Made by a program: the position numbers and the translations under genes. The notes under the pieces were generated by a model. The model was not told the origin of the DNA. It searched no databases and saw only the letters and a list, made by a program, of their open reading frames with translations. 64,000 nt of DNA from Ignavibacteriota bacterium (GTDB lineage Bacteria > Bacteroidota > Ignavibacteria > UBA10030 > SZUA-254), in contig JACQVI010000079.1 of assembly GCA_016209795.1 (NCBI GenBank), positions 421 through 64,420 of the forward strand, read 5' to 3'. Below are positions 10,574 through 63,267 of this stretch, one piece after another (position 1 is the stretch's first letter; every line of letters begins with the position of its first letter).

Positions 10574-11056
10574 CGTTGTGATTATCAGTGCACTTGTAGT
10601 CTCATTTTTTGCTATCATAGCACTTTGGACGCGGGTTGCTCTTGTGCAAACTGTGACTGTCTGCACGTGTGACCTGATAGTCGAACGAAGGGCGCTGATC
10701 AAGCGTTCTTTCCTCCGCTCCCCTACCATGCCACACCTGCGGAGCGCATGCTTGCTGTACATTTTCTTAATCATTGTTTAACTGTTCTTGGAGGAGTTAT
10801 GAAACCACTGTATTCAACCGAGAGACGTGACACGGAGTTACCATACTCGCATACTGAGAAGTGCGGTTGGTTACAAGATTGGCTTTGAGCGCACGACCCA
10901 TCTTGCCTTCTCCAGGAACTTCATGGAAGTTCTACTTCAACGTTTATTTTCAGTAGCTTTCTCTAAACCGCATTCACCCCCAATCGAAATCAATCCACCA
11001 ACTATCAATATGCACCACCGAATTCACCAATCCCAACGACCAGAAAGGAGTTTTGT

Positions 11057-12390
11057 ATGAAAACAACAAATCTGTTTTTCATGCTTTTGCTGCTGAGCAT
11101 TATTAGCCTTGCTCAGGTACCGCAAATCATAACTCACCAAGGGTTTCTCACGCGTGCCAATGGTGAGCCGTACGATACCACAATTGCGATGACGTTCCGC
11201 TTGTTTACTGACCCGACTGGCGGAAGCCAAGTCAGCACAGACCAGACGTTCTCAAGCGTGACAGTAACCCGTGGTGTCTTTAACGTATCACTTTCTCTTA
11301 GCGGCGTTGCGTTCGATAAACAATACTGGCTTGAGGTTGTAGCAGGCGGACAAACGCTTAGCCCGCGCCGACTGTTGCTGCCGTCATTGAAAGCCTCAAG
11401 GGTGGAATAACGGCGAAGTTCGGCGATCTGTACGGAACCGCAATCGGCACCGCGCAACATGAAGTTACCAAACGGTATGACGTGCATCTTCCACTGCGTG
11501 ACACGCCCATCGGAAATCTTGTTACCGATGCATTCCGTGCAAAGACCGGAACGGATCTTGCCATCACTGCGCTTGGATTGATTTCGGAAAAAATATATAA
11601 AGGTCCCATTACGGGTGCGGATGTCTTTCGTGCAATGAGTTACGGGTTCGACGAAGCAACGGGGCTTGGCTTCCAACTCGCGACGCTTGACATTCTCGGT
11701 TCGGAATTGCTGAAGGGTCTCGAGATCGGACTCTCCCAGATCGAGGTGAGCGACGACTTCTTCCTGCAGGTTTCCGGGGCACGCTTCATCTACGATCCGG
11801 CTCAGCCAGTCGGTCGGCGAGTCAATGTGAAGTCGATTCGGCTCGAGAACGGAAAACGGTTCTCGCTCACCGACACCTACAGCGTCACGGTGAACACGGG
11901 CATCGTCGTACTCCTCGGCAGGCTCGGCATCGCAGTTGAAAACATCCGCGTGCTTCCGGACTTTGAGTATACGGTCATGCGTGATCACATTGTTGCGCTC
12001 GGGAGGATCAACTACCAATCGCAGGGTCGGCTGCGCGAACAGCCGAGGCGTCCAACAAAGGGGATGAACGTTTCTCTCAGATACGATGAGGGACAATCAA
12101 GAGAAGTGTTCGTGGAGAATTACCCAAATCCGTTCAATCCAACAACGAATTTCAGTTTTCGAGTTTCGGATTTCGGCTTTGTCAGCCTTAAAGTCTACGA
12201 TGTGCTGGGACGAGAAGTAGCAACGATTGTCAATGAGGAATTACAACCGGGTGAGTACACCAGAACGTGGGATGCGATCGGGTTGCCGAGCGGAGTGTCC
12301 TCCAAAGGCGGATACGCCTCTGGCGTATATATCTATCGGCTAATGGCTGGCGGTACGATTGAGACAAAGAAAGCCATTATAATGAGATAA
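11057..12390 (+). pseudogene. fragmented T9SS-sorted 5'-nucleotidase-like gene (signal peptide fragment, then 5'-nucleotidase C-terminal domain plus Por/T9SS sorting domain)
   Basis: ORF 11057-11410 (signal peptide, frame 2) and ORF 11482-12390 (frame 1, GTG-initiated) overlap in different frames around 11360-11410. The downstream part matches the 5'-nucleotidase C-domain ([18 protein letters not shown]..., [12 protein letters not shown]) and ends with a T9SS C-terminal sorting domain ([28 protein letters not shown]...GVYIYRL). The N-terminal metallophosphatase domain is absent. Confidence 0.4.
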
Positions 12391-12526: not shown

Positions 12527-14323
12527 ATGGATCATATCAGAAACTTCTGCATCATCGCTCACATCGATCACGGCAAATCGACCATTGCTGATCGACTGCT
12601 TGAGCGTACTGGCACAATCACCGAGCGTGAGATGAAGTTCAATCAGGTGCTCGATGACATGGAGCTTGAGCAAGAAAGAGGTATTACAATCAAGCTCCAC
12701 GCAATCCAGATGAAGTATCATGCGAAGGACGGTAAAACATACACGTTGAATCTCATCGATACGCCCGGTCATGTGGATTTCTCATACGAAGTTTCTCGTT
12801 CTCTTGCTGCCTGTGAAGGTGCTATTCTTGTTGTCGATGCATCTCAGGGAGTTGAAGCACAGACAATTAGCAATCTCTATTTAGCTATCGATGCAGGATT
12901 GGAGATCATTCCGGTCATCAATAAAATTGATTTGCCGAGTGCAATGATTGACACGGTAAAACACCAGATTATGGATTTGATTGGATGTAGAGAGCAAGAG
13001 ATTATCCTCGCAAGCGCCAAGATGAAGATTGGTGTCGATGAGGTGCTTGAAGCCGTTGTGAATCGTATCCCACCTCCAACGGGTGACCCGAGAGCGCCGC
13101 TGAAAGCCCTGATCTTTGATTCAATTTTTGATGGCTATCGTGGTTCGGTTGTCTATATTCGCGTCTTTGAAGGCACACTCAAAGAGAAAGACAAAATAAA
13201 GTTCTTTGCCACAAACAAAATCTTCGATGCAGAAGAAATAGGCATCCTCGAAATGCAGCGAGTACGAACTGGAATGTTATCAGCAGGTGATGTTGGGTAT
13301 CTCATTGCTGGTGCTAAGGATGTCCACGATACAAAAGTCGGTGACACCATCACTCACGCCGAACGACCTGCTGATGCCCCACTGCCTGGGTATAAAGAAG
13401 CTAAACCAATGGTGTTCGCTGGATTGTATCCGGTGAATGCCGATAACTTTACGGAGTTGAGAGATTCGCTTGAGAAACTGCGGATGAACGACGCCTCCCT
13501 GACATTTGAACCTGAAACTTCTGTCGCACTTGGATTTGGCTTTCGAGCGGGGTTTCTTGGGTTGCTTCATATGGAGATTGTTCAGGAGCGACTTGAGCGT
13601 GAGTACAAGCAGGAACTCATCACTACCGTCCCGAACGTAGAATATCGTGTTCTTACGCGTAGCAGCAACGTTGTCATGGTTGATAACCCTGCGTTGATGC
13701 CCCCACTTGGCGAGATCGAGTCTATCAAGGAGCCGTACGTGCGAGCACAAATCATCACACCATCAGAGTACATCGGCAATATCATGAAGTTGTGCACGGA
13801 ACGAAGAGGACTCTACAACAATACCACGTACCTTGACCCTACACGTGCCGATTTGCGGTATGAACTACCTTTGTCAGAGATCATTTTTGATTTCTATGAT
13901 AAGCTGAAGTCGACGTCCCGTGGGTATGCTTCGTTGGATTACGAATTTCTGGAATACCGAGATTCTGACTTAGTAAAGCTCGATATTTTACTGAATGGTG
14001 AGCCTGTCGATGCACTCTCGACGATTGTCCATCGAGAGAAAGCGTACGAATGGGGTAAGAAACTGTGCGCAAGATTACGCAAACTTATTCCTAGGCAGAT
14101 GTTTGAAGTTGTCATTCAGGCAGCAATCGGAAGTAAAGTCATCGCACGTGATTCTATCGCCCCACTGAGAAAAAATGTGTTGGCAAAATGCTATGGTGGC
14201 GACATCACCCGAAAACGAAAACTCCTCGAGAAACAAAAGGAAGGAAAGAAGCGTATGAAACAAGTTGGAAGAGTCGAGATACCGCAAGAGGCATTTCTTG
14301 CAGTGCTCGCCATGGAAGATTAA
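12527..14323 (+). CDS. lepA: elongation factor 4 (LepA)
   Basis: G-domain motif AHIDHGKST and full-length similarity. Length 598 aa. Confidence 0.95.
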
Positions 14324-28808: not shown

Positions 28809-28996
28809 TGAATGTTAGCCCAATATAACGAGAGGTGCTACAATTTGCAACACTATGATATTGGTAGAATGATTGGTAATTTTTATCTTATGTCACTATA
28901 TTCATGACAACATGGTGACTCTATAAAAGGTAACAACGATGAGCTTATTTATTGTCTATTCAAATCTAAAATCCCAAATCGCAAATCAAAAATAGA

Positions 28997-41252: not shown

Positions 41253-44200
41253 ATGGAATTCTTCATCATACCTCAGCTTACTTTGACTTTTGCGTTAGCT
41301 CTTCTGATATCGAGAAGTAGCCAAGAGACATTAGTCGGAGTATCAAAGTACTTCTTCATAGCATATTCTTGGTTCACGTGCGGATTACTCGTTTGGATGA
41401 TAACTTATTTCATTGGATTGGGCGACAACGGGACACCAAGGTTGTCGCTGGAGGAGCAACGACGAATTGTACACTTGGGTTACTATGTAGATCCGGATAG
41501 TTCAATTACTTTCAGTGGAGAGGGTTTTGAGAATTCCTTTCCTCACCAAGTCCTAAGTAACAACGATCGGATAAGACTAACACCTCTCTTTGGCCCTAGT
41601 ACTCTCAGAGCGACGAAATGGTTGGTTGAACATGAGATTCGCAGCCAACCCTTGAGACTCGATGATTCATGCGTAAACATCTCTCAACAAATGTGGCTGG
41701 CTCCAGGAGATACCTTCTCTGCTTATATCTACAGGGAGAGCGGCCCGCTTTTTTTCCGTCTCAGATGGGTAGTTGACACAACGTGGTGGGGTAGAGTCCA
41801 AAACAAATACTATTATACACAAGGTGTCTTCAGAAATGGGCTGGCAAATTACGAAATACGTGATACGGTGTTTTCAAAAAGCGCGCTGAGAGAAGGCCGC
41901 AAGCTGAGCGTAATGATGAGTTTGTGGGCTCAAAGAGAAAAAGAAGTATCTCAGCGTATTAACTCAACTTTATGGAATATCTTTCGAGGCATTACTTTCG
42001 TACGCGAGAAAAGAAATGACATTCTATCCAGGATAGGCCTGCTCATTGCTGATTCTTTGCTAGAAGAGTCCAATATTACGTTATACAAGAACTCTTCACG
42101 CCTTACCCGAGAAAGTGCCAACAGGGTAATAGAAATTCCTTTTTCTACCCATGTCGAGTGTGGGCTTGGGGCAAGCGATAAGCTCTCCCTTGTTCTTACA
42201 GATACGTTATCAAACGATAGCTACTTGGGCAATGTCCTCGAAGTCCGGTTTGAAAAACCCTATCGCTGGCCGCTGCCTCCAAAGCCTGACCAATATTTTA
42301 TCACAACCACCACCGATGATTTCATCCCTAGAGATGGCTATCGGATAAGCCTCGGACAATCAACAAATCCACTGTACGCGAAGTGTGTTCTGAATCGGGC
42401 AAGAGACACCATCGAAATAACTGATGGCAGGAGTGTCAGAGCTTTTCCATTGGGCGGTGTTATTAGGCTAGGGGACTTCCAACGTGGAGCAATCCTCTCT
42501 CTAGGGTCTGTAAACACTTTCGCAACTCTCCCATTGATTAGTAGCCAGCTGTACAATATTGGAGTTACAGCAACCTTGTTTCTTTTGATTTTGACTCTAT
42601 TAGTTACTTGGCTTCATTTTACAGAGAAGTACTCCCGTCCGAGGCTCGATGTTGGTTGGGTCGTGGTTTGGGGAGTAATGCTCACGATACTTACAGTGCG
42701 CCTTGTCTTATCGTATCGGGCAAGCTTATTGGCTCCAGAAGATGCGACACCGCGTGAGGTATTGGAAGTCTTTAGAAAGAGCCTCGATCTGAGCCTACTT
42801 GGCCTGCTCTTGATCCCATTATTGTTCATAGTCACACGTTGGTGTTGCCGAGATCACATAGAAGGTTTGTTTAGCAAAACCATTGCCGTTCTCAGGAAAC
42901 ATAAAACCATTGTATTACTGACATCGGCCATTGGGGCAGTTGCAATCTTCTCATGGCACATCCATTTCCAAAAACTCATTCAGGAAGCCTCTGAAGTCGA
43001 ATGGTTTCATTGGATCATGATTGGGGTATTACTTTTCGTCTGCAGTCTAGTTTGGATTCTGATGCGCAAGTGGAGAATCTACCTTGGGTGGGCCGCTGTT
43101 ATCCTTGCGTGGGTCCTTGTCGCCCATTTTTTTGGTATTGGTGAATCATTCTTCGGCCGCGTGAATATCGCAACGCACGTCTTCATGATAGTAGCCCTTC
43201 TCTCAGTGTCCAAACGAATCGTCGCTAATGCCAGCGTTATCGATTATACCATGGGCTTTTTGATTATCGTCGTTGGAATAGTGGCGGTCGTGGTTATCAT
43301 AGGTGATCGGGGGTTCATAATCTATACTCCGTCTTTGGTAACATTCCCGTTGTTGTGTCTTTTCTGGAATCGCCAATCAATCAACAACATCGTCTCTGAC
43401 GGACGTATCTACATCAGTTCACGATTACCTTTGGTTTTAGCTGGAATCATCAGTTTCGTTCTGCTCGTGGCGCTTCTCTCACAACTCGAGTGGAGGAGCC
43501 AAGTAATAAATCCTCGTAATCTTGAATCGCTCCATTACCGTTTAGCGAGCTTCACTGACACAGAAGAGTCTATTCTTCTCGCTCGTGAGGAAGATAGAAA
43601 CTTCAATCTGGATATGCTGCTCAGAAACTCGCATCAAGATTGGCAGATGAAGTTGTATGCGTCCGAAGGTGCTGATAGCGCGAGAGGATACGGAAAAGCG
43701 CCTCCGTCTGACATAGGAATGACTTATGCGACCTCATCTTCAGATTGCGTTTTCTCAACTTACTTGCTTGCAGAACACGGCTCCTTTGCGGCGCTGTCAG
43801 TTGTATTGTTGTATTTAACCCTAGCTATTGTTGTTTGCTTTGCTGCCTTGCATTTTCCAATCGACTACCAGCATCGTCTACTAACGTTGATCGCAATTGC
43901 ATCTTTCTTCGTGGCTAATTGTTTGTACATGGCAAGTACCAATGTTGGCTTGGCTCCCTTCACGGGTCAAAACATACCGTTACTTTCACTTCACTCTGGA
44001 TCAGATCTTGTGCAAGGATGTTTGCTTTTGCTTCTTCTCTCAGTTCTTCTATCCAAAGGGGTACATACGAGCACAGGTGTTGCACTTCCGGGGAACCCCA
44101 TCGTACGCAAGGTCGTTTTCTTTGTGATCATCCTGATCATTTTCTGGTTTGTGGCTCTCACCTTCTCTATCATTAATGTTGCTGCTAAAGACGATTATAG

Positions 44201-46466
44201 AAAAGACCATGACTTCCGCAGCACCTACCCCGGCCTTAAAGAATCTCTGCCTGACATTGATAACCCGGAGCGTGCCACACGCTGGAAATTGGTCGGTGAG
44301 AATTTGTTGCGACGCGCGGGCAGCTTCGCCATTCCGGGAATCGATGCTCTCATTGCGCAATTTAACGAAAAAGCCAACAAGTACGATGCTAACAATAACC
44401 TGATTTATCTCGCAGTCCACCCGACGAAAGGAGATACGGTCGTCGCAGTCAACCGAAATTATTTTAGACTTCGTTCTCCGTTCAGAATCGATTCGATCTG
44501 GACCGGAATAATCCTTTCGAGGTCGGATCCTGCCGCACCTACTATCAGTGGATTGGGGGGATCGTTCAGAATCAGTCTCCGCGATAGAGGACATGCTGAG
44601 AAGATTTCTTTGGGCGAGTCACCACCATTAATTACGACAAGGGCAGTGCAGATCACTGATCCAGGACGTAACGATGCATTCTTTGAGTTGATCCGCAGAG
44701 GTGAGGAGCTATTCCTTGAACGAAAAATAGGAGACTGGGAGATTTCGGTTAACGGGTCTAGGGTGACCTCACCGGTGAGGTTAAATCCATTCGATATTAT
44801 TTCCTTGGCAAGAAAGCAAAGACCATCCCACCAAGTACAATCTCGTTATAGGCTGACCACATTTTACTACTTAGGAATACAACATCCCATCTTCGCTTTT
44901 ACACAATGGAGAAATGGCAGGACCCGTCGGCTGTTTCCAGAAGGCGAAGTGTTCCCGCTCTCGTACGCTTTGGCGAAAAGCATGGACGAACTCCCACACC
45001 GACCTGATACCTTGGCTATTTCGCTCAACTTGTCACTACACACTTCTCTACAAAATGAGATAGCTGCGTTTGCAAGCAGATATCCACAGTACTCAGATAA
45101 TGAACCTCTCTCCACTCGCAAGCTCGCAGTGACATTAATCGATGCTTTTTCAGGCAAATTGCTTGCCATTCCATCGTGGCCCTTCATTAGTCCAAACCAA
45201 TTCGATTTTGAGGAAAAACTAGTACGGGCAACACCTACTGAGCAAATGCGGCTGGTCAACAATCATAATTTCACGAATCATCCCATTGGTTCAACTATCA
45301 AACCGCTCGTGTTGGCTTCATTAGCAACGATGTTGTGGCCAGAGGTTGACGTGTCGAGGATCTCTGTTTCAAATATTGCGGATAATACCACAGGTCACGA
45401 AACTGGAAACCGTGAGTACCGACATCCTCATGTGCGAGTTGGAAGTCATGAGCTAGAAGCGATTTGGGATTGCAATAGTGAACAGTCCTCGATCAACGCC
45501 CATGATTTTATCATCCATTCGAGAGACTATTACATAGGCATGATAGGGGTCCTCGGAATGCTCACGGATAGGAGTGACTGGACCAGAGTACTCAACCAGG
45601 AAGGAACAGGAAACAGGATAATATATGGTAACAGAACATACTCAATCAATATGTACAACGCCCGCATGTCGCCCTTTGTTTGGGACGGTACTCGAATTAC
45701 TGGTCTCCGTACTCAATCGAGCATGGACAGTACCTTCCTTTTTAAGGGGCTTTCTTCCGCCTTCGGGGCAGGTCTCTCAACCAGTTACAAATTAATGTTG
45801 AATCGATCTGTTGCTGACTTCTTCCCTTCCTTGCATAGGATGAATCTGCCCGTCATTGATAGCTTAGAGTCAATGTATCTAGATAACGTCGTTCCCGAGC
45901 CAGTATTACTTCACTTTGGAGAAACTTCCCAACTTCTGCGTCGCGATTTGATTACTTTCTTACTCGGGGCAGGCCAGTGCCGATGGAACAACGTAATCAT
46001 GGCCCAATCTGCTGCCCGTGTTGCGACTGGTAGAGCAGTAACTGCAACCTTGGAGTTAGATAATGTGGAAGAAAATCCGCGCGCGTTTCCTCTCTTACAC
46101 CCACCAATGGATAATAGACAATGGCGCTATGACAACCTGATCACACCTATGAGGCTTGTTGGAGTGCGAGGTACAGCTGATTCATTGAGGAATCTAGTTC
46201 AATCACCATTCGTTGCCATTTACAAAACTGGCACAATTGAAGAGAGGGAACGTGGACCGGAAAGCGAGTGGCTTCTTTTTGTAGTCGGTAGATTACAGAA
46301 TGACAGTTTCGTTCCTGGTGAAACAGTAGCGGGCTTCTTCTATATGCAGGAGTCAAAAGACCGATACGGGCCTATGAAGAAGTTCGAACTTGCACGCCCG
46401 ATTATCACTCGTGTCGTTGATTATCTTAAGCGCGTTTCAACAGTGTCACAACATTACGATGAATGA
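41253..46466 (+). CDS. giant (1737 aa) SEDS (FtsW/RodA/SpoVE-like) glycosyltransferase fused to a class B penicillin-binding protein transpeptidase, with a ~420-aa N-terminal extracytoplasmic extension and extra TM helices
   Basis: SEDS blocks: SSSDCVFSTYLLAEHGSFAALSVVLLYL (compare SDFIFsvigEELGfiG; D831 at nt 43743) and GLAPFTGQNIPLLSLHSGSDL (compare GllPvTGvPLPFiSYGGSS). Transpeptidase motifs: SxxK = STIKP (S1347, nt 45291), SxN = SIN and KTG = KTGT (K1658, nt 46224). Confidence 0.7.
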   Translation: MEFFIIPQLTLTFALALLISRSSQETLVGVSKYFFIAYSWFTCGLLVWMITYFIGLGDNGTPRLSLEEQRRIVHLGYYVDPDSSITFSGEGFENSFPHQVLSNNDRIRLTPLFGPSTLRATKWLVEHEIRSQPLRLDDSCVNISQQMWLAPGDTFSAYIYRESGPLFFRLRWVVDTTWWGRVQNKYYYTQGVFRNGLANYEIRDTVFSKSALREGRKLSVMMSLWAQREKEVSQRINSTLWNIFRGITFVREKRNDILSRIGLLIADSLLEESNITLYKNSSRLTRESANRVIEIPFSTHVECGLGASDKLSLVLTDTLSNDSYLGNVLEVRFEKPYRWPLPPKPDQYFITTTTDDFIPRDGYRISLGQSTNPLYAKCVLNRARDTIEITDGRSVRAFPLGGVIRLGDFQRGAILSLGSVNTFATLPLISSQLYNIGVTATLFLLILTLLVTWLHFTEKYSRPRLDVGWVVVWGVMLTILTVRLVLSYRASLLAPEDATPREVLEVFRKSLDLSLLGLLLIPLLFIVTRWCCRDHIEGLFSKTIAVLRKHKTIVLLTSAIGAVAIFSWHIHFQKLIQEASEVEWFHWIMIGVLLFVCSLVWILMRKWRIYLGWAAVILAWVLVAHFFGIGESFFGRVNIATHVFMIVALLSVSKRIVANASVIDYTMGFLIIVVGIVAVVVIIGDRGFIIYTPSLVTFPLLCLFWNRQSINNIVSDGRIYISSRLPLVLAGIISFVLLVALLSQLEWRSQVINPRNLESLHYRLASFTDTEESILLAREEDRNFNLDMLLRNSHQDWQMKLYASEGADSARGYGKAPPSDIGMTYATSSSDCVFSTYLLAEHGSFAALSVVLLYLTLAIVVCFAALHFPIDYQHRLLTLIAIASFFVANCLYMASTNVGLAPFTGQNIPLLSLHSGSDLVQGCLLLLLLSVLLSKGVHTSTGVALPGNPIVRKVVFFVIILIIFWFVALTFSIINVAAKDDYRKDHDFRSTYPGLKESLPDIDNPERATRWKLVGENLLRRAGSFAIPGIDALIAQFNEKANKYDANNNLIYLAVHPTKGDTVVAVNRNYFRLRSPFRIDSIWTGIILSRSDPAAPTISGLGGSFRISLRDRGHAEKISLGESPPLITTRAVQITDPGRNDAFFELIRRGEELFLERKIGDWEISVNGSRVTSPVRLNPFDIISLARKQRPSHQVQSRYRLTTFYYLGIQHPIFAFTQWRNGRTRRLFPEGEVFPLSYALAKSMDELPHRPDTLAISLNLSLHTSLQNEIAAFASRYPQYSDNEPLSTRKLAVTLIDAFSGKLLAIPSWPFISPNQFDFEEKLVRATPTEQMRLVNNHNFTNHPIGSTIKPLVLASLATMLWPEVDVSRISVSNIADNTTGHETGNREYRHPHVRVGSHELEAIWDCNSEQSSINAHDFIIHSRDYYIGMIGVLGMLTDRSDWTRVLNQEGTGNRIIYGNRTYSINMYNARMSPFVWDGTRITGLRTQSSMDSTFLFKGLSSAFGAGLSTSYKLMLNRSVADFFPSLHRMNLPVIDSLESMYLDNVVPEPVLLHFGETSQLLRRDLITFLLGAGQCRWNNVIMAQSAARVATGRAVTATLELDNVEENPRAFPLLHPPMDNRQWRYDNLITPMRLVGVRGTADSLRNLVQSPFVAIYKTGTIEERERGPESEWLLFVVGRLQNDSFVPGETVAGFFYMQESKDRYGPMKKFELARPIITRVVDYLKRVSTVSQHYDE

Positions 46467-48017
46467 ACTACTAAGCAAAACGCCGCCTAACAACAGCAAA
46501 AAACGATTCGGGCAAAAAGCGCCCTCACCCAAATTGCGGCACTCTCGCAATCTTCCCACTCCCCACAGAATCAAACTAACCGCCAATCCCGGATACATCG
46601 GCTCAATCCCAAGGGGATAATTTCCTGTTGCTCCATTCACATGTCCAGCAATAAGCCACCCCAGAGATGTTAGCCAGCCGAGCAGCATCGAGAGAAATGC
46701 ATAGCGTGCCGAGATTTTCAATCGCTCAAAGTAACTTGCCATTAACGGCACAAGCAAGCCTGGAATCACAACCGTCCCAATCGTGTACCAGAGTTTGATG
46801 ACGCTGGGGATGGCAAGTCCGAGAAGAGCAGAAAATACGAAAGAGACAATCAAACCGAGTTGCGTATACTTTGTTAAAGACTGGTTTGAGTTTGCAGGTT
46901 CGAGATGTGAGTAACCCTCTCCCCTCTTGTTCCCCTCTCCCAAATTTGGGAGAGGGGATGCAGGGGTGAGGGTATTACTCAATCCTCTAACCTCTAACCG
47001 CATCGCTACATCTCTTCCCAACGTTTGTGCTGAGACAAATGCTAAAGTGTTCAACGTCGACATAATCGTTGCGAGCATGCCGACGTAAAACAATCCTTTG
47101 GCAACGGGTGGAAGAATGGTTTCCGCAAGCATTGGGTATGCTGCGATTGGATTCTGAAGATTTGGAAGTGCGGCACGAGCATACAGTCCTGCCGTTGCTG
47201 TCATACAATCAAAGATGAACCAGAAGATAATTGAAACGAGAATCCCCTTTTGCGCCGTCGTGCCGTCCTTTGCTGCGTAGCACCGTTGATGAAATGCAGG
47301 ATCGACTAACGTCCAGAGTGCTATGAAAAACCAGACAAGGATGTACTGGATGGAATGCCCGCCATGCCATGCCAAGTGCAGCGGTGGGAGGCTCGATTGC
47401 AGATACTCAAATCCTCCGTAACTCGTAATGCAAAAAGGAATAATGATAAGAAAGCCAAGGAACATCAGGATGAATTCAAGAACATCAGTCTGGACATCGG
47501 AACGAAATCCACCAAAATACAAGTAGGGAAGTATTACAATCGCAGTTACTATGACGCTCAGGAGCATACTCCATCCAAAAAGCATTTGGAGAAAAACGCT
47601 GAGCATCAGAATATATGGTGCCGGCGTCATCAGAATGAACGTGAGAACTGAGCCAAGCAGTGCTGTTTTGTTGTCGTAGGCGTGTGCGAGTTTATCCGGG
47701 ATCGAGTACAGGTTTGTTGCTCGGATTTTCTTTGCAAGGAAGAATGCGAAGACTGCAGCGAAAACATAATAAGGCAGCCCCTGCACAACCCAATTTGAGA
47801 TACCATGCCGGTATGAAAACTCTCCCACACCTAAAATACCGCCATACCATGTTGAGACCAGCGTCATCACAAACACAGGAAGCGTCAGCGAGCGTCCCGC
47901 TAAGAGATAATCTTCTTCGGACCTGGTGGTTTTCCTTGCTGATCGAAAGCCGATATAGAGAACTGCCGCAAAGTAAAAGAGAATAATGAAGATGTCGATG
48001 AAGGAGAGATTAATCAT
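46446..48017 (-). CDS. sodium:solute symporter (SSS family) transporter, probable vitamin (thiamine-related) uptake
   Basis: 523 aa with about 13 TM helices and SSS-type N-terminal helices. It is the last gene of the riboswitch-TonB-receptor-TPK operon. It contains an in-frame palindromic insertion (see repeat feature). Confidence 0.75.
   Translation of the reverse strand: MINLSFIDIFIILFYFAAVLYIGFRSARKTTRSEEDYLLAGRSLTLPVFVMTLVSTWYGGILGVGEFSYRHGISNWVVQGLPYYVFAAVFAFFLAKKIRATNLYSIPDKLAHAYDNKTALLGSVLTFILMTPAPYILMLSVFLQMLFGWSMLLSVIVTAIVILPYLYFGGFRSDVQTDVLEFILMFLGFLIIIPFCITSYGGFEYLQSSLPPLHLAWHGGHSIQYILVWFFIALWTLVDPAFHQRCYAAKDGTTAQKGILVSIIFWFIFDCMTATAGLYARAALPNLQNPIAAYPMLAETILPPVAKGLFYVGMLATIMSTLNTLAFVSAQTLGRDVAMRLEVRGLSNTLTPASPLPNLGEGNKRGEGYSHLEPANSNQSLTKYTQLGLIVSFVFSALLGLAIPSVIKLWYTIGTVVIPGLLVPLMASYFERLKISARYAFLSMLLGWLTSLGWLIAGHVNGATGNYPLGIEPMYPGLAVSLILWGVGRLRECRNLGEGAFCPNRFLLLLGGVLLSSSFIVML
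46915..46990. repeat. nested GA/CT-rich palindromic element inserted in-frame in the SSS transporter CDS
   Basis: Perfect 10-bp stem cccctctccc-aaattt-gggagagggg, flanked by an outer imperfect stem gagtaaccctc...gagggtattactc. It translates to the loop insertion NLGEGNKRGEGYSHLEP. Confidence 0.4.
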
Positions 48018-48071
48018 TGGTTCTGAGTTGTGAGTAGTTACTGGTTAGTAGTTAGTATCCAGCATCGTGGA

Positions 48072-48692
48072 TCACTGATTAATTCGATAGAGCAGGAGCG
48101 TTCCTTTTTTCACTGTAATGGTAACCATCGATGCTGTTGCTTCATTACTAATTCCCTCTCGCACGCCAAGCTCAAGCGTTTCGTTCTGCAAGCCATATTT
48201 TAAGTTCTTTGTTGTAACGCCGCTGCATCGCTCTAAGGGAATCAAGGAAAGCCGCTCACCTTTTCTCGTTTTGAAGCGGCTCCGTTTTTGAATCAAGGTT
48301 ACTTCTCCAACGGAATCCACTAAGCGCAGTCTTACGTTGCTTCCATATTTTTTGAAACAGCCAAGACTCCCAGTTGTGTGATCAATCCGATCGCCCGACC
48401 AGCCGATGACATCAATGGATGCTGCTTTTCGCTGGATACAGAATTCAATCGCTTTCTCCAGATCGGTGCTGTTCTCGTCTTCGATGAACAACTGTGGGAT
48501 GGATTTGAAAAAAGCTTTTGTGGGAGATGTGACTGAATCCATGTCGCCAAGGATGACGTCCGGCTTGATTTTCAGCCTTCGGGCATGGTTTGCTCCTCCA
48601 TCTGCACACACGATCAAGTCGGCATGCTTAAGAAGCTTACGAACAAGTTGAGGAGAAGGGGATCTTCCATTCGCTATGATGAGGGCGTGCAT
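48072..48692 (-). CDS. thiamine pyrophosphokinase
   Basis: CADGGANH and ILGDMDSV motifs typical of TPK. Length 206 aa. Confidence 0.8.
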   Translation of the reverse strand: MHALIIANGRSPSPQLVRKLLKHADLIVCADGGANHARRLKIKPDVILGDMDSVTSPTKAFFKSIPQLFIEDENSTDLEKAIEFCIQRKAASIDVIGWSGDRIDHTTGSLGCFKKYGSNVRLRLVDSVGEVTLIQKRSRFKTRKGERLSLIPLERCSGVTTKNLKYGLQNETLELGVREGISNEATASMVTITVKKGTLLLYRINQ

Positions 48693-48697
48693 GGGTC

Positions 48698-51043
48698 TTA
48701 CAAGTTTGCGGTTATGCCAACGAGATAATTCCGTTCCGCTGCAGGGAAGAATGCATTCCCTTCACCGCTCATAAAGTAGAGGTTGTTAAAGATATTCCGA
48801 ACTTCTCCACGTAGTGTGAAGGTCGTTCCAGCTATCTCGGGTGTTTGATAGATGATCTCAGCGTTTAACACTGTGTAGGCATCGTTTTTGTTGTCTTCAT
48901 TTTTGAAATTATCAGTATAGAAAGCTCCAACATATTTTGCAAGCACGGAAAGCGTTATTGGATGTTGACGATACGTTACCCGCACATTGCCAAGTGCATT
49001 TGGAAAACCTGCAATCGGATTGCCATCCAGGCTGGTAGGGACAACAATTGTGTTTCCAGCGGAGTCTGCTGATTCCAAGTATACACGATGCTTGACGAGT
49101 TCATTCTGAGAAAGCGAAAAATTACCGCTGAGTGTCAATGCTTCGACGATGTTGAAAGATCCATCAAGCTCTACACCGATGTGTCGAGTCCGTTCTGCAT
49201 TGCCAGTCACTGGCTGTCCAAAGATATCCACTTGACCGCTTTTTACCAGTTCATCAGTAAATTCCATCCAAAACACATTTGCAGAAAGACGAGCGATGGA
49301 ATTACGGAAGCCAGCACCGGCTTCGAGATCAAGCAGATGCTCTGGCTTGGCAAGCGGCTCACCAAAGTCGTATTTCACTACTCCACCTGTCGTGTCAGCT
49401 TTGAACTGTGGCGTTGCTCCGAAGTACGAATCTTCAGCAGCATATAAGTTGCGAAGTCGTGGCTCCCGTGATGTATACGCAAGGGAGAGATAAGCATTCC
49501 ATTCGTCCGTAATGTTATAGTTCAAGCCAACTCTTGGGTTGACGAAGATATATGGCAGGCTGAATGTGTTGTTCAGATATTTTTCATTCTTGATTCCATA
49601 GCGATTTCTCACAAGCTGTAAGTCAGCCATCAATGTGGTGTTCTCTGCCAGTCGATAAAGCTCGTGAGCATAGGCAGAAAGAATATCCTTCTCACCGTTG
49701 TATTCATAGAAGTGATAATCAGGATCAAAATTGGTCGGAAGTCCTTCGGCAAATTGGATTTTACCCCAATGGGTTGATCGGTGGATGCGCAGCTCAGCAC
49801 CCAATGTGAGGCTGCCATCGCCATGATCATATTCTATTCTCGGCAGCCATCCCCATTGCTTGTTGCCGACAAAAGCACGTACCAGCGTGTTGGTTGGATT
49901 CTGAGAGGTTGGAATTCCATAAGCATAACCGATTCTTAGTAGTGATGTATCTGCCCATGAGGCATCATAATCAAAGAAGCCATCGCCGGTATAGTAAAAT
50001 ATCGTGTTATGGAGAGTAGTTGTAGGGGAAAGCTGCCACTCATTCAAGAGCTCGTAGTGAGGCTGTGAGAAGTTTTCGATCTCTTGTGTTCTTCGCGCCT
50101 GGGTGTAGCCATATCCTTTGCCAGTCGAATCAACTTCCCAGTAGACGAGGTTTTGTCGGCGAAAAGTTTTATTATCGTTAACAAACTTTGGAAGACCATA
50201 GTATGCGAGGCCATCTGCGATAGGACCGCCGAAAATATGAATGCGTGTCATCATCTCTTTATCAAAACGGACTGCACCAAGGAAATACGAGTTGAAATCC
50301 ACCCAGGAATTTTCACGGTATCCGTTGCTCAGAATTTTTCCGAGTCTCCCATACACCATGTATTGCTGTTCGATCAATCCTGAGTTAATGGTTGCCGTAT
50401 ACTTTCTTGTGTTGAGTGAAAGCGTTCTTTCATCATCTCCAAACTCCTGAAATCCAAGCATCGTTTCCAGCGTGATTCCCGGCTTACGGCTGAAGGGGTT
50501 CGTGGTTAGATTAATCGAGCCGCCGATTGCTGGAGGTCCGTAGAATGCACTTCCGGCACCACGTTGCACTTGAACGATGCCAGTGCTTGCAATAAGATCG
50601 GGGAAATCTATCCAATACACATTATGATCTTCCGGATCGTTTTGAGGAACACCGTTGATCATTACCGAAAGCCGACGCTGATCAAATCCACGCAGGTTGA
50701 TGTAATTGTAGCCGATGCCGTTGCCGTTCTCCGAGTAGTATGTGATTGAAGGAAGCTCTGAGAGTAGGACCGGTATATCTTGAGTAGAGTATCGCTCCGA
50801 GAGTTCTTGCTGAGTAAGATTGGAAAATGTCACAGGCGATTCGCGCTCGGTTGCTTGAGTGGCTGTGATGATTACAGGTGATAAATAGTACGTTGTCGTA
50901 TCGGCAGGACTATCTTGGTTTTGTTGAGCAACGGATAAATGTACACTACAAATCAGATAGAGTGAAATCAATGTTAGAATCGTTTTCATTGCAAATCCTT
51001 TCATAAAAGTCTCTAAAATACAAACGCCGCTTTCCTGATCCAT
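48698..51043 (-). CDS. TonB-dependent outer-membrane receptor (probable thiamine transporter)
   Basis: Signal peptide, plug domain with TonB-box-like region and 22-strand barrel length (781 aa). TPP riboswitch immediately upstream. Confidence 0.85.
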   Translation of the reverse strand: MDQESGVCILETFMKGFAMKTILTLISLYLICSVHLSVAQQNQDSPADTTTYYLSPVIITATQATERESPVTFSNLTQQELSERYSTQDIPVLLSELPSITYYSENGNGIGYNYINLRGFDQRRLSVMINGVPQNDPEDHNVYWIDFPDLIASTGIVQVQRGAGSAFYGPPAIGGSINLTTNPFSRKPGITLETMLGFQEFGDDERTLSLNTRKYTATINSGLIEQQYMVYGRLGKILSNGYRENSWVDFNSYFLGAVRFDKEMMTRIHIFGGPIADGLAYYGLPKFVNDNKTFRRQNLVYWEVDSTGKGYGYTQARRTQEIENFSQPHYELLNEWQLSPTTTLHNTIFYYTGDGFFDYDASWADTSLLRIGYAYGIPTSQNPTNTLVRAFVGNKQWGWLPRIEYDHGDGSLTLGAELRIHRSTHWGKIQFAEGLPTNFDPDYHFYEYNGEKDILSAYAHELYRLAENTTLMADLQLVRNRYGIKNEKYLNNTFSLPYIFVNPRVGLNYNITDEWNAYLSLAYTSREPRLRNLYAAEDSYFGATPQFKADTTGGVVKYDFGEPLAKPEHLLDLEAGAGFRNSIARLSANVFWMEFTDELVKSGQVDIFGQPVTGNAERTRHIGVELDGSFNIVEALTLSGNFSLSQNELVKHRVYLESADSAGNTIVVPTSLDGNPIAGFPNALGNVRVTYRQHPITLSVLAKYVGAFYTDNFKNEDNKNDAYTVLNAEIIYQTPEIAGTTFTLRGEVRNIFNNLYFMSGEGNAFFPAAERNYLVGITANL

Positions 51044-51084
51044 CCAGCGTAGAAGAATCAGAAAAACGGCGTTCGAGAAGTTGT

Positions 51085-51175
51085 TACTCCGTTTCCCTAC
51101 GCTGGTATGATCCAGATCAGGTTCCCAGGGTATTCTCTCAGTCCAGCCTGAGGCGGGACACCCCTAACGGATTTC
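51085..51175 (-). promoter_or_regulatory. TPP (thiamine pyrophosphate) riboswitch, THI-box
   Basis: The minus-strand RNA reads ccguuaGGGGUGucCcgccucaGGCUGAGAGaauACCCUgGGAACCUGAUCUGGAUcAUaCCAGCGUAGGGAAacgg. The P1 stem is ccguu/aacgg. The conserved CUGAGA, ACCCU..GAACCUGAUCUGGAUAAUGCCAGCGUAGGGAA core matches almost base-for-base. Confidence 0.8.
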
Positions 51176-56110: not shown

Positions 56111-56861
56111 TGTTGTACTTTATCCTCACCTCGTTACCAAACTCTCGTGCCCTGTCTGCTGTCTTAAAATTTCCAACCCACACCAGGAATAAACTCCGCC
56201 CGCCACGGACTTTGTTAGTGATTTCCACAGCGTAGCCCAAATCTTCAAAGAAACTTTTCTGTTTCTCAGCATTTGCAACAGTCGAAAACGCACCAACTTG
56301 TAAGGTGTAAGGCTCGTTTGTGGGGGCAGGGTTTGTTTCCTCGGACTGTGATGTATCGACAGGAAGCGGACTTTCTTTCGGTGGGAGATTAACAACTGCT
56401 TCATCTTTCTCCGGGAACTTGACAACAGGCTTTCCCGTAACGTAGGGAGAGTTTGGGTATTCTTTTTTCAACTGCTGAAGCTTTAAGTCTGCTGTTCGAT
56501 AAAGCCCGAGTGCATAGTAGTATTGGTGGATGCGGTATAATGCGTCGTCCGCCCAGTCGCTTTTGGGAAAATTATCGACAACGCTCTGGTAGAATTTTAC
56601 AGCTTCGATACCATCCGTTGCTAATCGTCCTTGCAGGTAAAGAATCCCAGGATCGTTCTGATATTTTGCGACTAAGTCGGGGAGTGCTTTTTTGACTTCT
56701 TCTGTTTGGCCACTCTCCAATTTTTCGATGTAGGCTTGCAGCTCACCCGTTTGCGTGTAGAGGCGTGAGTTAACAACGAAGACAAAAGCGAGGACAATCA
56801 TTACTTTTCGCCACACCCTCCAATCGCAAATCGCCAACCGTAAATCTACAATCACTTTCAT
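56082..56861 (-). CDS. membrane-anchored TPR protein with C-terminal SPOR (peptidoglycan-binding) domain
   Basis: N-terminal TM helix and TPR-like helices. The C-terminal YTLQVGAFSTVANAEKQKSFFEDLGYAVEI...LFLVWVGNFKTADRAREF is a typical SPOR domain. Confidence 0.65.
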   Translation of the reverse strand: MKVIVDLRLAICDWRVWRKVMIVLAFVFVVNSRLYTQTGELQAYIEKLESGQTEEVKKALPDLVAKYQNDPGILYLQGRLATDGIEAVKFYQSVVDNFPKSDWADDALYRIHQYYYALGLYRTADLKLQQLKKEYPNSPYVTGKPVVKFPEKDEAVVNLPPKESPLPVDTSQSEETNPAPTNEPYTLQVGAFSTVANAEKQKSFFEDLGYAVEITNKVRGGRSLFLVWVGNFKTADRAREFGNEVRIKYNIDSIVVERY

Positions 56862-62325: not shown

Positions 62326-63225
62326 ATGAAACACAATCTCAAAACCCATCCCGACAAGGTCGGGACGAACTCCGAACCTCTGATCGGCGCCCATGAGTCC
62401 ATCGCCGGCGGCATCCACAAAGCATTCGAGCGAGCGGAGAGTGTTGGTTGTCGAGTGCTTCAAGTCTTCACCAAGAACTCAAACCAGTGGAGTGCCAAGC
62501 CGCTGACCGACGAAGACATCGCAAACTACAAAACTACTGCATCGAAGTCAAGCATTAAACATGTCATCGCTCATGATAGCTATCTCATCAATTTGTGTGC
62601 AAAAGACAGAAGTATTCTCCGTAAATCTCGTGAGGCTCTCCTTGATGAGCTGAATCGATGCGAAATGCTTGGTATCAAGTATTTGAACTTTCATCCCGGT
62701 TCACACATGGGTGCGGGAGAAAAGGAGGGAATTCGAATGATCGTCGACTCATTGAGCTGGGTGCACCAGCAAGCAAATGGATATCAGGTAAAGAGTGTAC
62801 TTGAAACAACAGCAGGTCAGGGATCTGCTGTTGGACACCGATTTGAGCATCTCAGAGAAATCATCGATGGTGTTGATGAGCCAGAACGAATGGCGGTCTG
62901 TATCGATACGTGCCATATCTTTGCAGCGGGATATGACATCAGAACTGAAGAGGTATATGAACGAACAATGAAGGAGTTTGATGACATCGTTGGTTTAGAG
63001 AGACTTGTTGCATTTCATGTCAACGACTCGAAGAAGCCGTTAGGCTCTCGTGTGGATCGGCATGAGCATATTGGCAATGGAGCCATCGGTGAAATAGGAT
63101 TCAGATGCTTGATGCTTGATACTCGAGTACAGGAGATTCCGAAAATCCTTGAAACACCAAAAGGGAAAGATCTCAAAGAGGACAGAATGAATTTGAGAAT
63201 CCTGGAGAAACTGGCAAAGACGTAG
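62326..63225 (+). CDS. nfo: endonuclease IV (AP endonuclease, Nfo)
   Basis: Collinear with E. coli Nfo (GAHES.AGG, HDSYLINL, NFHPGSH, ETTAGQGS, CIDTCHIFAAGYD, HVNDSK). The true start may lie ~50 nt downstream at a non-ATG codon. Confidence 0.9.
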   Translation: MKHNLKTHPDKVGTNSEPLIGAHESIAGGIHKAFERAESVGCRVLQVFTKNSNQWSAKPLTDEDIANYKTTASKSSIKHVIAHDSYLINLCAKDRSILRKSREALLDELNRCEMLGIKYLNFHPGSHMGAGEKEGIRMIVDSLSWVHQQANGYQVKSVLETTAGQGSAVGHRFEHLREIIDGVDEPERMAVCIDTCHIFAAGYDIRTEEVYERTMKEFDDIVGLERLVAFHVNDSKKPLGSRVDRHEHIGNGAIGEIGFRCLMLDTRVQEIPKILETPKGKDLKEDRMNLRILEKLAKT

Positions 63226-63237
63226 AATCGAAAATCT

Positions 63238-63267
63238 AAAATCAAAAAACCTGTGGTGAGCACGGGC
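63238..63267 (-). terminator. rho-independent terminator downstream of the small zinc-ribbon ORF
   Basis: Minus-strand cccgug-cucac-cacagg hairpin followed by uuuuuugauuuu. Confidence 0.4.

Follow-up and report, generated by a model that had tools for sequence, protein, structure and literature searches.

The gene of an SSS-family transporter in an Ignavibacteriota bacterium (GenBank assembly GCA_016209795.1, contig JACQVI010000079.1, positions 421 to 64,420; the whole 64,000-nucleotide (nt) stretch is hereafter called the window) contains a strongly palindromic segment that the reading frame crosses without interruption. The question raised by this locus is where the segment came from, and whether the transporter or its messenger RNA (mRNA) makes any use of it. 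The comparisons described here identify it as a 60-nt palindromic repeat of the BoxC/PIT/TM type, a family known for about 30 years and reported as strictly intergenic in Escherichia coli, which here stands in frame in an essential-looking transporter. With a probability of roughly 0.8, the feature is an intragenic, frame-preserving and lineage-specific copy of this family, carried as a tolerated passenger in a disordered cytoplasmic loop.

The initial annotation, made from the letters of the window, had described a perfect 10-bp inverted repeat with a 6-bp loop, nested in a longer imperfect palindrome within the SSS open reading frame (ORF) and leaving the frame unbroken, all of which stands. 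Read from the window sequence, the core is a perfect hairpin of 10 + 6 + 10 nt (CCCCTCTCCC AAATTT GGGAGAGGGG) and, being a perfect palindrome, has the same sequence on either strand. Around it, two arms of 58 nt (46887-46944 and 46945-47002), 72% complementary, form an imperfect palindrome of about 116 nt, the longest anywhere in the window, whose inner 12-nt arms (46914-46925 and 46962-46973) are 92% complementary. The core 26-mer is unique in the window at up to three mismatches, and no match was obtained in 100 shuffles. On the sense strand the element reads ACCCTCACCCCT-GCAT-CCCCTCTCCCAAATTTGGGAGAGGGG-AACAAG-AGGGGAGAGGGT, amounting to exactly 20 codons (peptide TLTPASPLPNLGEGNKRGEG, residues 349-368 of the SSS protein); five of the six reading frames across it are free of stops, and its GC content is 0.60 against 0.47 in the remainder of the gene. 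The peptide NLGEGNKRGEGYSHLEPANSNQ given in the initial annotation is a correct translation (residues 358-379), whereas the proposed insertion of about 25 amino acids (aa) is reduced to 20, since the tail is native.

The family was named from the literature through the third-block motif of the element; taken alone, GGGAGAGGGG and CCCCTCTCCC matched only eukaryotic and viral literature. Holder et al. (2015; PMC4666352) described a G/C-rich intrastrand triplex motif, TM (TM_ECO in E. coli), which had been known as BoxC in the 1990s and as the potential intrastrand triplex (PIT) element of Hoyne et al. (2000); the consensus sequence reads CCCTCTCCC-loop-GGGAGAGGG-NN-GGGGTGAGGG (PMC4666352, Table 1), and it is present in more than 260 genomes, being very abundant in some cyanobacteria. 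The window element agrees with this consensus and with the E. coli K-12 copy between hrpB and mrcB, having nearly the same sequence of CCC(C)TCTCCC, loop, GGGAGAGGG(G), short spacer and GGGGTGAGGG. With G·G:C, A·A:T and T·A:T as the allowed purine-motif triads, 10 of 10 triads were allowed on the plus strand (CCCCTCTCCC / GGGAGAGGGG / GGGGTGAGGG; loops of 6 and 5 nt) and again 10 of 10 on the minus strand (third block GGGGAGAGGG; loops of 6 and 7 nt), the three-block triplex rule of the family thus holding on both strands. The 10-nt stem and the plus-strand loops lie within the ITxF limits (stem 6-15 nt, loops 1-6 nt), and the minus-strand loops within those of Hoyne et al. only (0-10 nt). Judged by its sequence, the element with its core is a complete class II purine-motif intrastrand triplex motif on each strand, with one hairpin common to both. 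Its three blocks (pyrimidine, complementary purine and G-rich mirror) would fold as a hairpin or, in single-stranded DNA, as an intrastrand triplex. TM_ECO oligonucleotides form a stable triplex as isolated strands in vitro, none having been detected in vivo (PMC4666352). The possibility that the G-rich strand forms a G-quadruplex was set aside, as nuclear magnetic resonance on TM_ECO excluded the quadruplex in favour of the triplex (PMC4666352).

Differences from the E. coli elements are also apparent. TM_ECO in MG1655 is 'always located intergenically' (PMC4666352), whereas the window copy stands within a gene and in its frame. E. coli is known to have inverted 'palindromic' pairs; the hrpB-mrcB copy, which folds similarly to the window element, consists of two inverted TMs in separate hairpins about 17 nt apart, whereas the window form is compact and symmetric around a single common hairpin. 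The second loops measure 5 and 7 nt in the window, against 2-3 nt.

The relatives of the element in other genomes are numerous. The exact 26-nt core, loop included, occurs at 72 loci in GTDB representative genomes and at 65 further loci in metagenome contigs. By our own estimate, chance would produce about 1e-4 exact matches to a 26-mer across 596 Gb. The 72 loci are spread over Cyanobacteria, Chloroflexota, Ignavibacteriota (5 loci), Bacteroidota, Armatimonadota, Deinococcales and Longimicrobiaceae, and several genomes hold more than one, namely Nostoc sp. P9639 (7), one Chloroflexota metagenome-assembled genome (MAG; 6), Calothrix (4) and the Bacteroidota MAG SPRUCE567 (3). The majority of exact-core copies lie between genes or at gene ends, so that the family resembles BoxC/PIT/TM also in being multi-copy, dispersed, mostly intergenic and cross-phylum, cyanobacteria included. 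Copies from Ignavibacteriota and Bacteroidota have the same 12-nt outer arms and the same architecture as the window copy amid unrelated flanks: in an alignment with eight of them, similarity extends from ACCCTC to GAGGGT with 47 invariant columns, and 50 of the 60 element positions, in three blocks (12 + 26 + 12 nt), are identical. The initial annotation had proposed a search of the genome for copies: the other genomes that carry the core hold up to seven each, and the window itself a single one. When the loop is left free, the bare hairpin motif is abundant (at least 120 stretches in viral contigs) and is typically flanked on one side by CCCTC[A/T]CCCC beyond a 2-nt spacer. Within three Ignavibacteria copies an additional small hairpin occupies the spacer between outer arm and core (L128, 7905-7937; L174, 1160-1195, TCCCGCTCTTCGAGCGGGA; L126, 3725-3758), and these repeats therefore nest within each other.

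Comparison with orthologues reveals the loop as it is without the element. Homologues of the SSS protein numbered 4725, mostly from Ignavibacteria and Bacteroidota MAGs, with 64-78% identity among the best 120 of the 4725, and an exact look-up found no record of the identical protein; when 30 sequences were aligned, some 150 columns proved invariant, all of them kept in the window protein, and the stretch past the invariant SAQTLGRD motif varied in length. The loop between transmembrane segments 9 and 10 (TM9 and TM10, the latter excluded) measures 17-62 aa over the 109 homologues in which it could be scored and 47 aa in the window protein. None of these 109 carries the GEG segment of the palindrome, either as a conserved native loop or otherwise, in keeping with the earlier remark that it is atypical of SSS proteins, and a protein-level search with the 48-aa loop returned no candidate having three 5-mers in common.

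At the DNA level, three orthologues (P0053, P0038 and P0014; loci L197, L198 and L199) were aligned with the window copy: the flanking loop residues (RL.VRG... and NLEPQT.NQS.TK) are kept, and the middle is lacking. The backbone common to all four is built of heptamers, (AGGTTNG)n, followed across a short centre by the inverted array (CNNAACC)n, and the window copy has, in comparison with all three, one clean additional block of 60 nt at the centre of this backbone, both flanks being collinear. The upstream (sense) arm has its counterparts in AGGTTGG GGATTAG... of P0053 and AGGTTAC AGGTTAG... of P0014, and the downstream arm, which repeats the upstream heptamer array in inverted form, in CTCGAAC CGCAAAC CGCAAAC and similar sequences; the tail ...SHLEPANSNQ is native and common to the orthologues (NLEPQT.NQS in P0053, P0038 and P0012). 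When the element was deleted in silico, the junction TGAGTAAT/TACTCA proved to be a perfect 14-nt palindrome, and the empty site would be expected to read ...GGATTGAGTAAT/TACTCACATC....

The protein that receives the insert is predicted to be a well-formed transporter of the LeuT fold. Its AF2 model (pTM 0.83, mean pLDDT 82.6) was matched by Foldseek to SGLT2, CHT1, SiaT and vSGLT with TM-scores of 0.66-0.75, and pLDDT falls below 50 only in the C-terminal tail and in a sole internal segment, residues 346-376, between helices 306-346 and 378-402. With 14 hydrophobic segments predicted, lysine and arginine together amount to 26 in the odd loops and 4 in the even loops; by the positive-inside rule, loop 9 (residues 329-388, TM9-TM10), the site of the insert, is cytoplasmic, which answers the question of membrane side left by the initial annotation. 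A copy of 60 nt, or 20 codons, with no stop in the frame used and encoding a flexible Pro/Gly-rich peptide, would be tolerated for these reasons in a disordered loop of variable length. The insert is most likely harmless, a passenger that would have no required role in the transporter protein. At its other end, the SSS ORF extends about 30 aa beyond the end of its homologues (...GRLRECRNLGEGAFCPNRFLLLLGGVLLSSSFIVML) through a GGGGC-TTTTT-GCCCC hairpin (46446-46540), and its 3' end overlaps by 21 nt that of a convergent 1737-aa ORF (41253-46466). This additional tail, with pLDDT below 50, contains the hydrophobic stretch predicted as the 14th segment, and it is probably read-through into the shared terminator region and not functional.

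The main consequence of the insert would be a very stable hairpin in mRNA and DNA, possibly accompanied by local instability. In folding predictions, which cover Watson-Crick hairpins only, the RNA of the palindrome region forms a hairpin of about 29 bp (-55.9 kcal/mol, z = -7.45; 0 of 200 shuffles equally stable) and the DNA fold has z = -6.75, the outer arms of the element base-pairing with one another. With the element deleted the fold is weak (z = -1.5), and the orthologue loops give z-scores of about -0.87 to -3.5; the strength of the hairpin is therefore due to the inserted block. Such stability could be taken as the mark of an element under selection that acts in cis, as mRNA or DNA, in the last gene of the operon, the repeat having been co-opted as a translational pause between TM9 and TM10 in aid of membrane insertion, an RNase III/E site for processing or stabilisation, or an internal attenuator, and inverted heptamer arrays do stand at the same spot in orthologues, one of which (P0014) folds significantly (z = -3.5). 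We consider this unlikely: three orthologues are without significant structure (z = -0.9, -1.4 and -0.87), the GC-rich hairpin is confined to this lineage, and a cis-regulatory role is not supported by conservation because the orthologues lack it. The hairpin is also without a T-run for intrinsic termination, a search of the element against Rfam found no family and only sub-threshold matches to microRNA hairpins, and PIT/TM elements in E. coli had neither promoter nor terminator activity (Hoyne and Maher, 2002, cited through PMC4666352). The idea that the heptamer backbone makes up a conserved mRNA hairpin was rejected in its own right, as the orthologue z-scores are mostly not significant.

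It could also be proposed that the loop evolved natively in place, through heptamer slippage and quasi-palindrome correction, with a convergent match to BoxC/TM. The loop is rich in local repeat evolution, heptamer arrays and varied small hairpins being found in many orthologues, and template-switch correction can lengthen palindromes. Convergence would nevertheless have to produce the 50 shared positions in three blocks, the structurally irrelevant AAATTT loop included. The GC content, moreover, steps up from 0.47 to 0.60 precisely at the limits of the block, and we regard such an origin as very unlikely. A sequencing or assembly artefact (fold-back chimera or mis-joined repeat), which the initial annotation had wished to see excluded, is very unlikely despite the proneness of palindromes to such errors, given that the block is not an inverted copy of adjacent DNA and matches an independent repeat family block for block, that its 60 nt keep the reading frame exactly, that both flanks are collinear with the orthologues, and that similar in-frame copies occur in many unrelated assemblies.

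Several points weigh against the interpretation of the insert as a BoxC/PIT/TM passenger. The window has one copy, and the multi-copy status of the source genome is extrapolated from its relatives; where the insertion begins and ends, and that it lacks a target-site duplication, is drawn from orthologues of about 70% identity, not from a sister strain; the nearest family copies measure 58 nt, not 60, so that to preserve the frame either a variant of 60 nt or some compensating change was needed; and a functional role of the insert, as peptide or as mRNA structure, is possible. To our knowledge, no mobilising enzyme is known for the family. The vicinity of the E. coli TM copies was reported to be free of mobility genes, and TM loci are more variable than control loci between E. 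coli strains (Holder et al., PMC4666352).

On the favoured interpretation, the history of the insert may have run as follows. A weak palindrome of inverted heptanucleotide arrays would already have stood in the hypervariable TM9-TM10 loop, and a compact, symmetric BoxC/PIT/TM copy would then have arrived at its centre in an Ignavibacteria-like lineage, either by insertion into the apex of the existing hairpin or by template switching at the quasi-palindrome.

The initial annotation had suggested a MITE- or REP-like insertion tolerated in a loop. Its REP-like and tolerated character is borne out by the dispersed family and the disordered, hypervariable loop, but 'MITE' (miniature inverted-repeat transposable element) is unsupported because neither a target-site duplication nor a link to a transposase was found. 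A recombination hotspot or an mRNA structural element, both also suggested there, are possible. MITEs are likewise small and non-autonomous, with terminal inverted repeats (here ACCCTC...GAGGGT), and in-frame genic fusions are possible for them (PMC10969869). The 60-nt element is shorter than typical MITEs, and membership was rejected, the flanks GAGTAAT/.../TACTCAC being inverted and not direct; no direct duplication was present at the window copy or at the eight aligned family copies. We know of no parent insertion sequence with matching ends. Repetitive extragenic palindromic (REP) sequences and REPINs, associated with RAYT, are also short, GC-rich and extragenic palindromes, multi-copy, often in inverted pairs, without target-site duplication and sometimes genic (PMC3116915, PMC3733652). 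Their families are usually species- or genus-specific, whereas the 26-nt core is identical across phyla, and assignment to REP/REPIN was discarded, since the element ends in ACCCTC/GAGGGT without a GTAG or CGTC tag; no RAYT turned up, although no systematic RAYT search of the window was made.

A closer functional parallel may be drawn with the Rickettsia palindromic elements (RPEs), which insert in frame into unrelated protein genes and add a peptide at fold-compatible positions (Ogata et al., 2000, reviewed in PMC10969869). The family of the window copy similarly occupies the reading frames of 14 or more genes unrelated to one another. RPEs measure about 150 bp, are restricted to Rickettsia and are genic in nearly half of the cases, whereas the window family measures 58-60 nt, crosses phyla and is about 10% genic; the parallel is thus best taken as a functional analogy, not as family membership, the two being set apart by size and host.

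Apart from the SSS gene, the exact core stands in frame within at least 13 other genes with Pfam support (listed in the table below), counted as exact-core copies in stop-free segments and variously positioned relative to the domains. The genic share of exact-core copies is roughly 10%, and the genomes concerned are Chloroflexota, Armatimonadota, cyanobacteria-like and Ignavibacteria-like. The frame used by the window copy, SPLPNLGEGN, is the commonest among the genic exact-core copies: PLPNLGEG was read in 5 of 5 internal copies of a first sample and in 5 of 9 of an independent metagenome sample, with binomial p-values, by our own calculation, of about 0.15 for the latter and about 0.004 for the combined 10 of 14. 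A reading-frame bias toward PLPNLGEG is therefore suggestive only. In viral contigs the genic copies of the broader family are Pfam-real, lie mostly in the C-terminal tails of portal proteins and use assorted frames, though frame statistics are unreliable there, as the high GC content of these contigs goes with stop-free frames that overlap. Four phage portal-protein ORFs (L005, L021, L036 and L075; Phage_portal, SPP1_portal and Portal_Mu) have a TM-type hairpin in the tail just past the portal domain.

The repeat family itself is already known, as are palindromic repeats fixed in frame within genes; relative to the literature searched, its in-frame presence in at least 14 genes across phyla, its compact symmetric form and its context at the apex of a palindrome appear to be new. 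For annotators, this means that low-complexity 'GEG/PLP' inserts in proteins are to be expected as repeat-derived, and the BoxC/PIT/TM family, like RPEs before it, lends itself to study as a contributor to variation in protein length. The central position within an older palindrome and the cross-phylum identity of 26 nt, loop included, offer handles on whether and how these elements move. A bolder and rather doubtful conjecture would be that BoxC/TM repeats are still mobile across phyla, target the apex of existing hairpins and palindromes, and have repeatedly been fixed in frame like RPEs, preferably as a benign Pro/Gly-rich linker (..PLPNLGEG..); were it true, the window copy would be a snapshot of an insertion mechanism that has been missing for the family since the 1990s.

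Features of the window (coordinates in the window) and in-frame copies of the exact core in other genes (locus identifiers).
Feature	Position or locus	Strand	Description
60-nt BoxC/PIT/TM-type palindromic repeat	46914..46973	-	Limits from family similarity and orthologue DNA alignment
Core hairpin	46932..46957	both	Pyrimidine block CCCCTCTCCC, loop AAATTT, purine block GGGAGAGGGG
Third-strand block, plus strand	46962..46973	+	A-GGGGTGAGGG-T, 5 nt past purine block
Third-strand block, minus (mRNA-sense) strand	46914..46925	-	A-GGGGAGAGGG-T, 7 nt past purine block
Upstream (sense) arm of older palindrome	46974..47002	-	GGTTAGA GGTTAGA GGATTGA GTAAT; encodes ...LEVRGLSN; period-7 array
Downstream (sense) arm of older palindrome	46887..46913	-	TACTCACAT CTCGAAC CTGCAAA CTCAAAC; encodes YSHLEPANSN
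SSS-family (LeuT-fold) transporter gene, intact, 523 aa	46446..48017	-	Pfam SSF PF00474, 102.9 bits, 2.4e-29
Operon context of SSS gene	48072..51175	-	TPP riboswitch, TonB-dependent receptor, TPK
Thiamine pyrophosphokinase (TPK)	48072-48692	-	Upstream of SSS gene
TonB-dependent receptor	48698-51043	-	Upstream of SSS gene
TPP riboswitch	51077-51175	-	Rfam RF00059, 74.3 bits against a gathering score of 54.3
Class A penicillin-binding protein (PBP1) linker	L127		..PLPNLGEG.. frame
Phosphoenolpyruvate carboxylase	L146		..PLPNLGEG.. frame
Multihaem cytochrome	L178		..PLPNLGEG.. frame
Class V aminotransferase/kynureninase	L182		..PLPNLGEG.. frame
Polyketide synthase, past acyltransferase domain	L264		..PLPNLGEG.. 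frame
F420-0:gamma-glutamyl ligase	L250		..PLPNLGEG.. frame
CHAT/TPR protein	L265		..PLPNLGEG.. frame
HerA-like protein	L233		..PLPNLGEG.. frame
GT9	L223		..PLPNLGEG.. frame
GH35 beta-galactosidase	L231		PLSQIWERG frame
YqeC-MobA fusion	L255		PLSQIWERG frame
FhaA	L213		PLSQIWERG frame
PrpD	L224		PSPKFGRG frame

The surroundings of the SSS gene bear on its substrate. The order TonB-dependent receptor, TPK, SSS is kept at six fetched orthologous loci (L002, L003, L004, L197, L198 and L199), and TPK-SSS at L001; given this conserved cluster and the TPP riboswitch, the context suggests that the SSS protein is an inner-membrane importer of thiamine or of a thiamine precursor in these Ignavibacteria-like organisms. 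An SSS-family 'ThiV' was reportedly predicted by Rodionov and colleagues in 2002.

Other orthologues have different small GC-rich hairpins in the same TM9-TM10 loop (L002, 11000-11250; L004, 11010-11250; L001, 2030-2220). The loop of L002 has CCCGCC..GGCGGG and GCCCGCCTGCC..GGCGGGCAGGG, and that of L004 two direct 42-nt units, each with TGCGCC.GGCGCA and TCCGCC.GGCGGA hairpins. To judge by these hairpins, the TM element is apparently only one of several unrelated palindromic repeats that this loop repeatedly takes up.

Imperfect heptanucleotide tandem arrays are frequent in these genomes, in intergenic and coding regions alike, examples being (AAATCNN)n, (AGTTAGT)n, (GGTTACA)n and (GAAATCC)n. 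The window has such arrays at 28959-28996, 48020-48057, 56820-56850 and 63223-63251, and L003 has 11 in 21 kb (e.g., 11012-11160 and 14126-14198). The array between TPK and SSS reads TAACTAC TAACCAG TAACTAC on the sense strand and resembles the TAACTGA direct repeats described from Beggiatoaceae and cyanobacteria (PMC4679880). Within coding regions, heptanucleotide arrays give rise to peptides with a 7-aa period, such as SEIRNPKSEIRNPK. A DNA repeat of period 14 (CGAATTTCAGTTTTCGAGTTTCGGATTTCGG) lies in a coding region at 12140-12180, where the encoded peptide resembles a C-terminal sorting domain of the type IX secretion system (T9SS).

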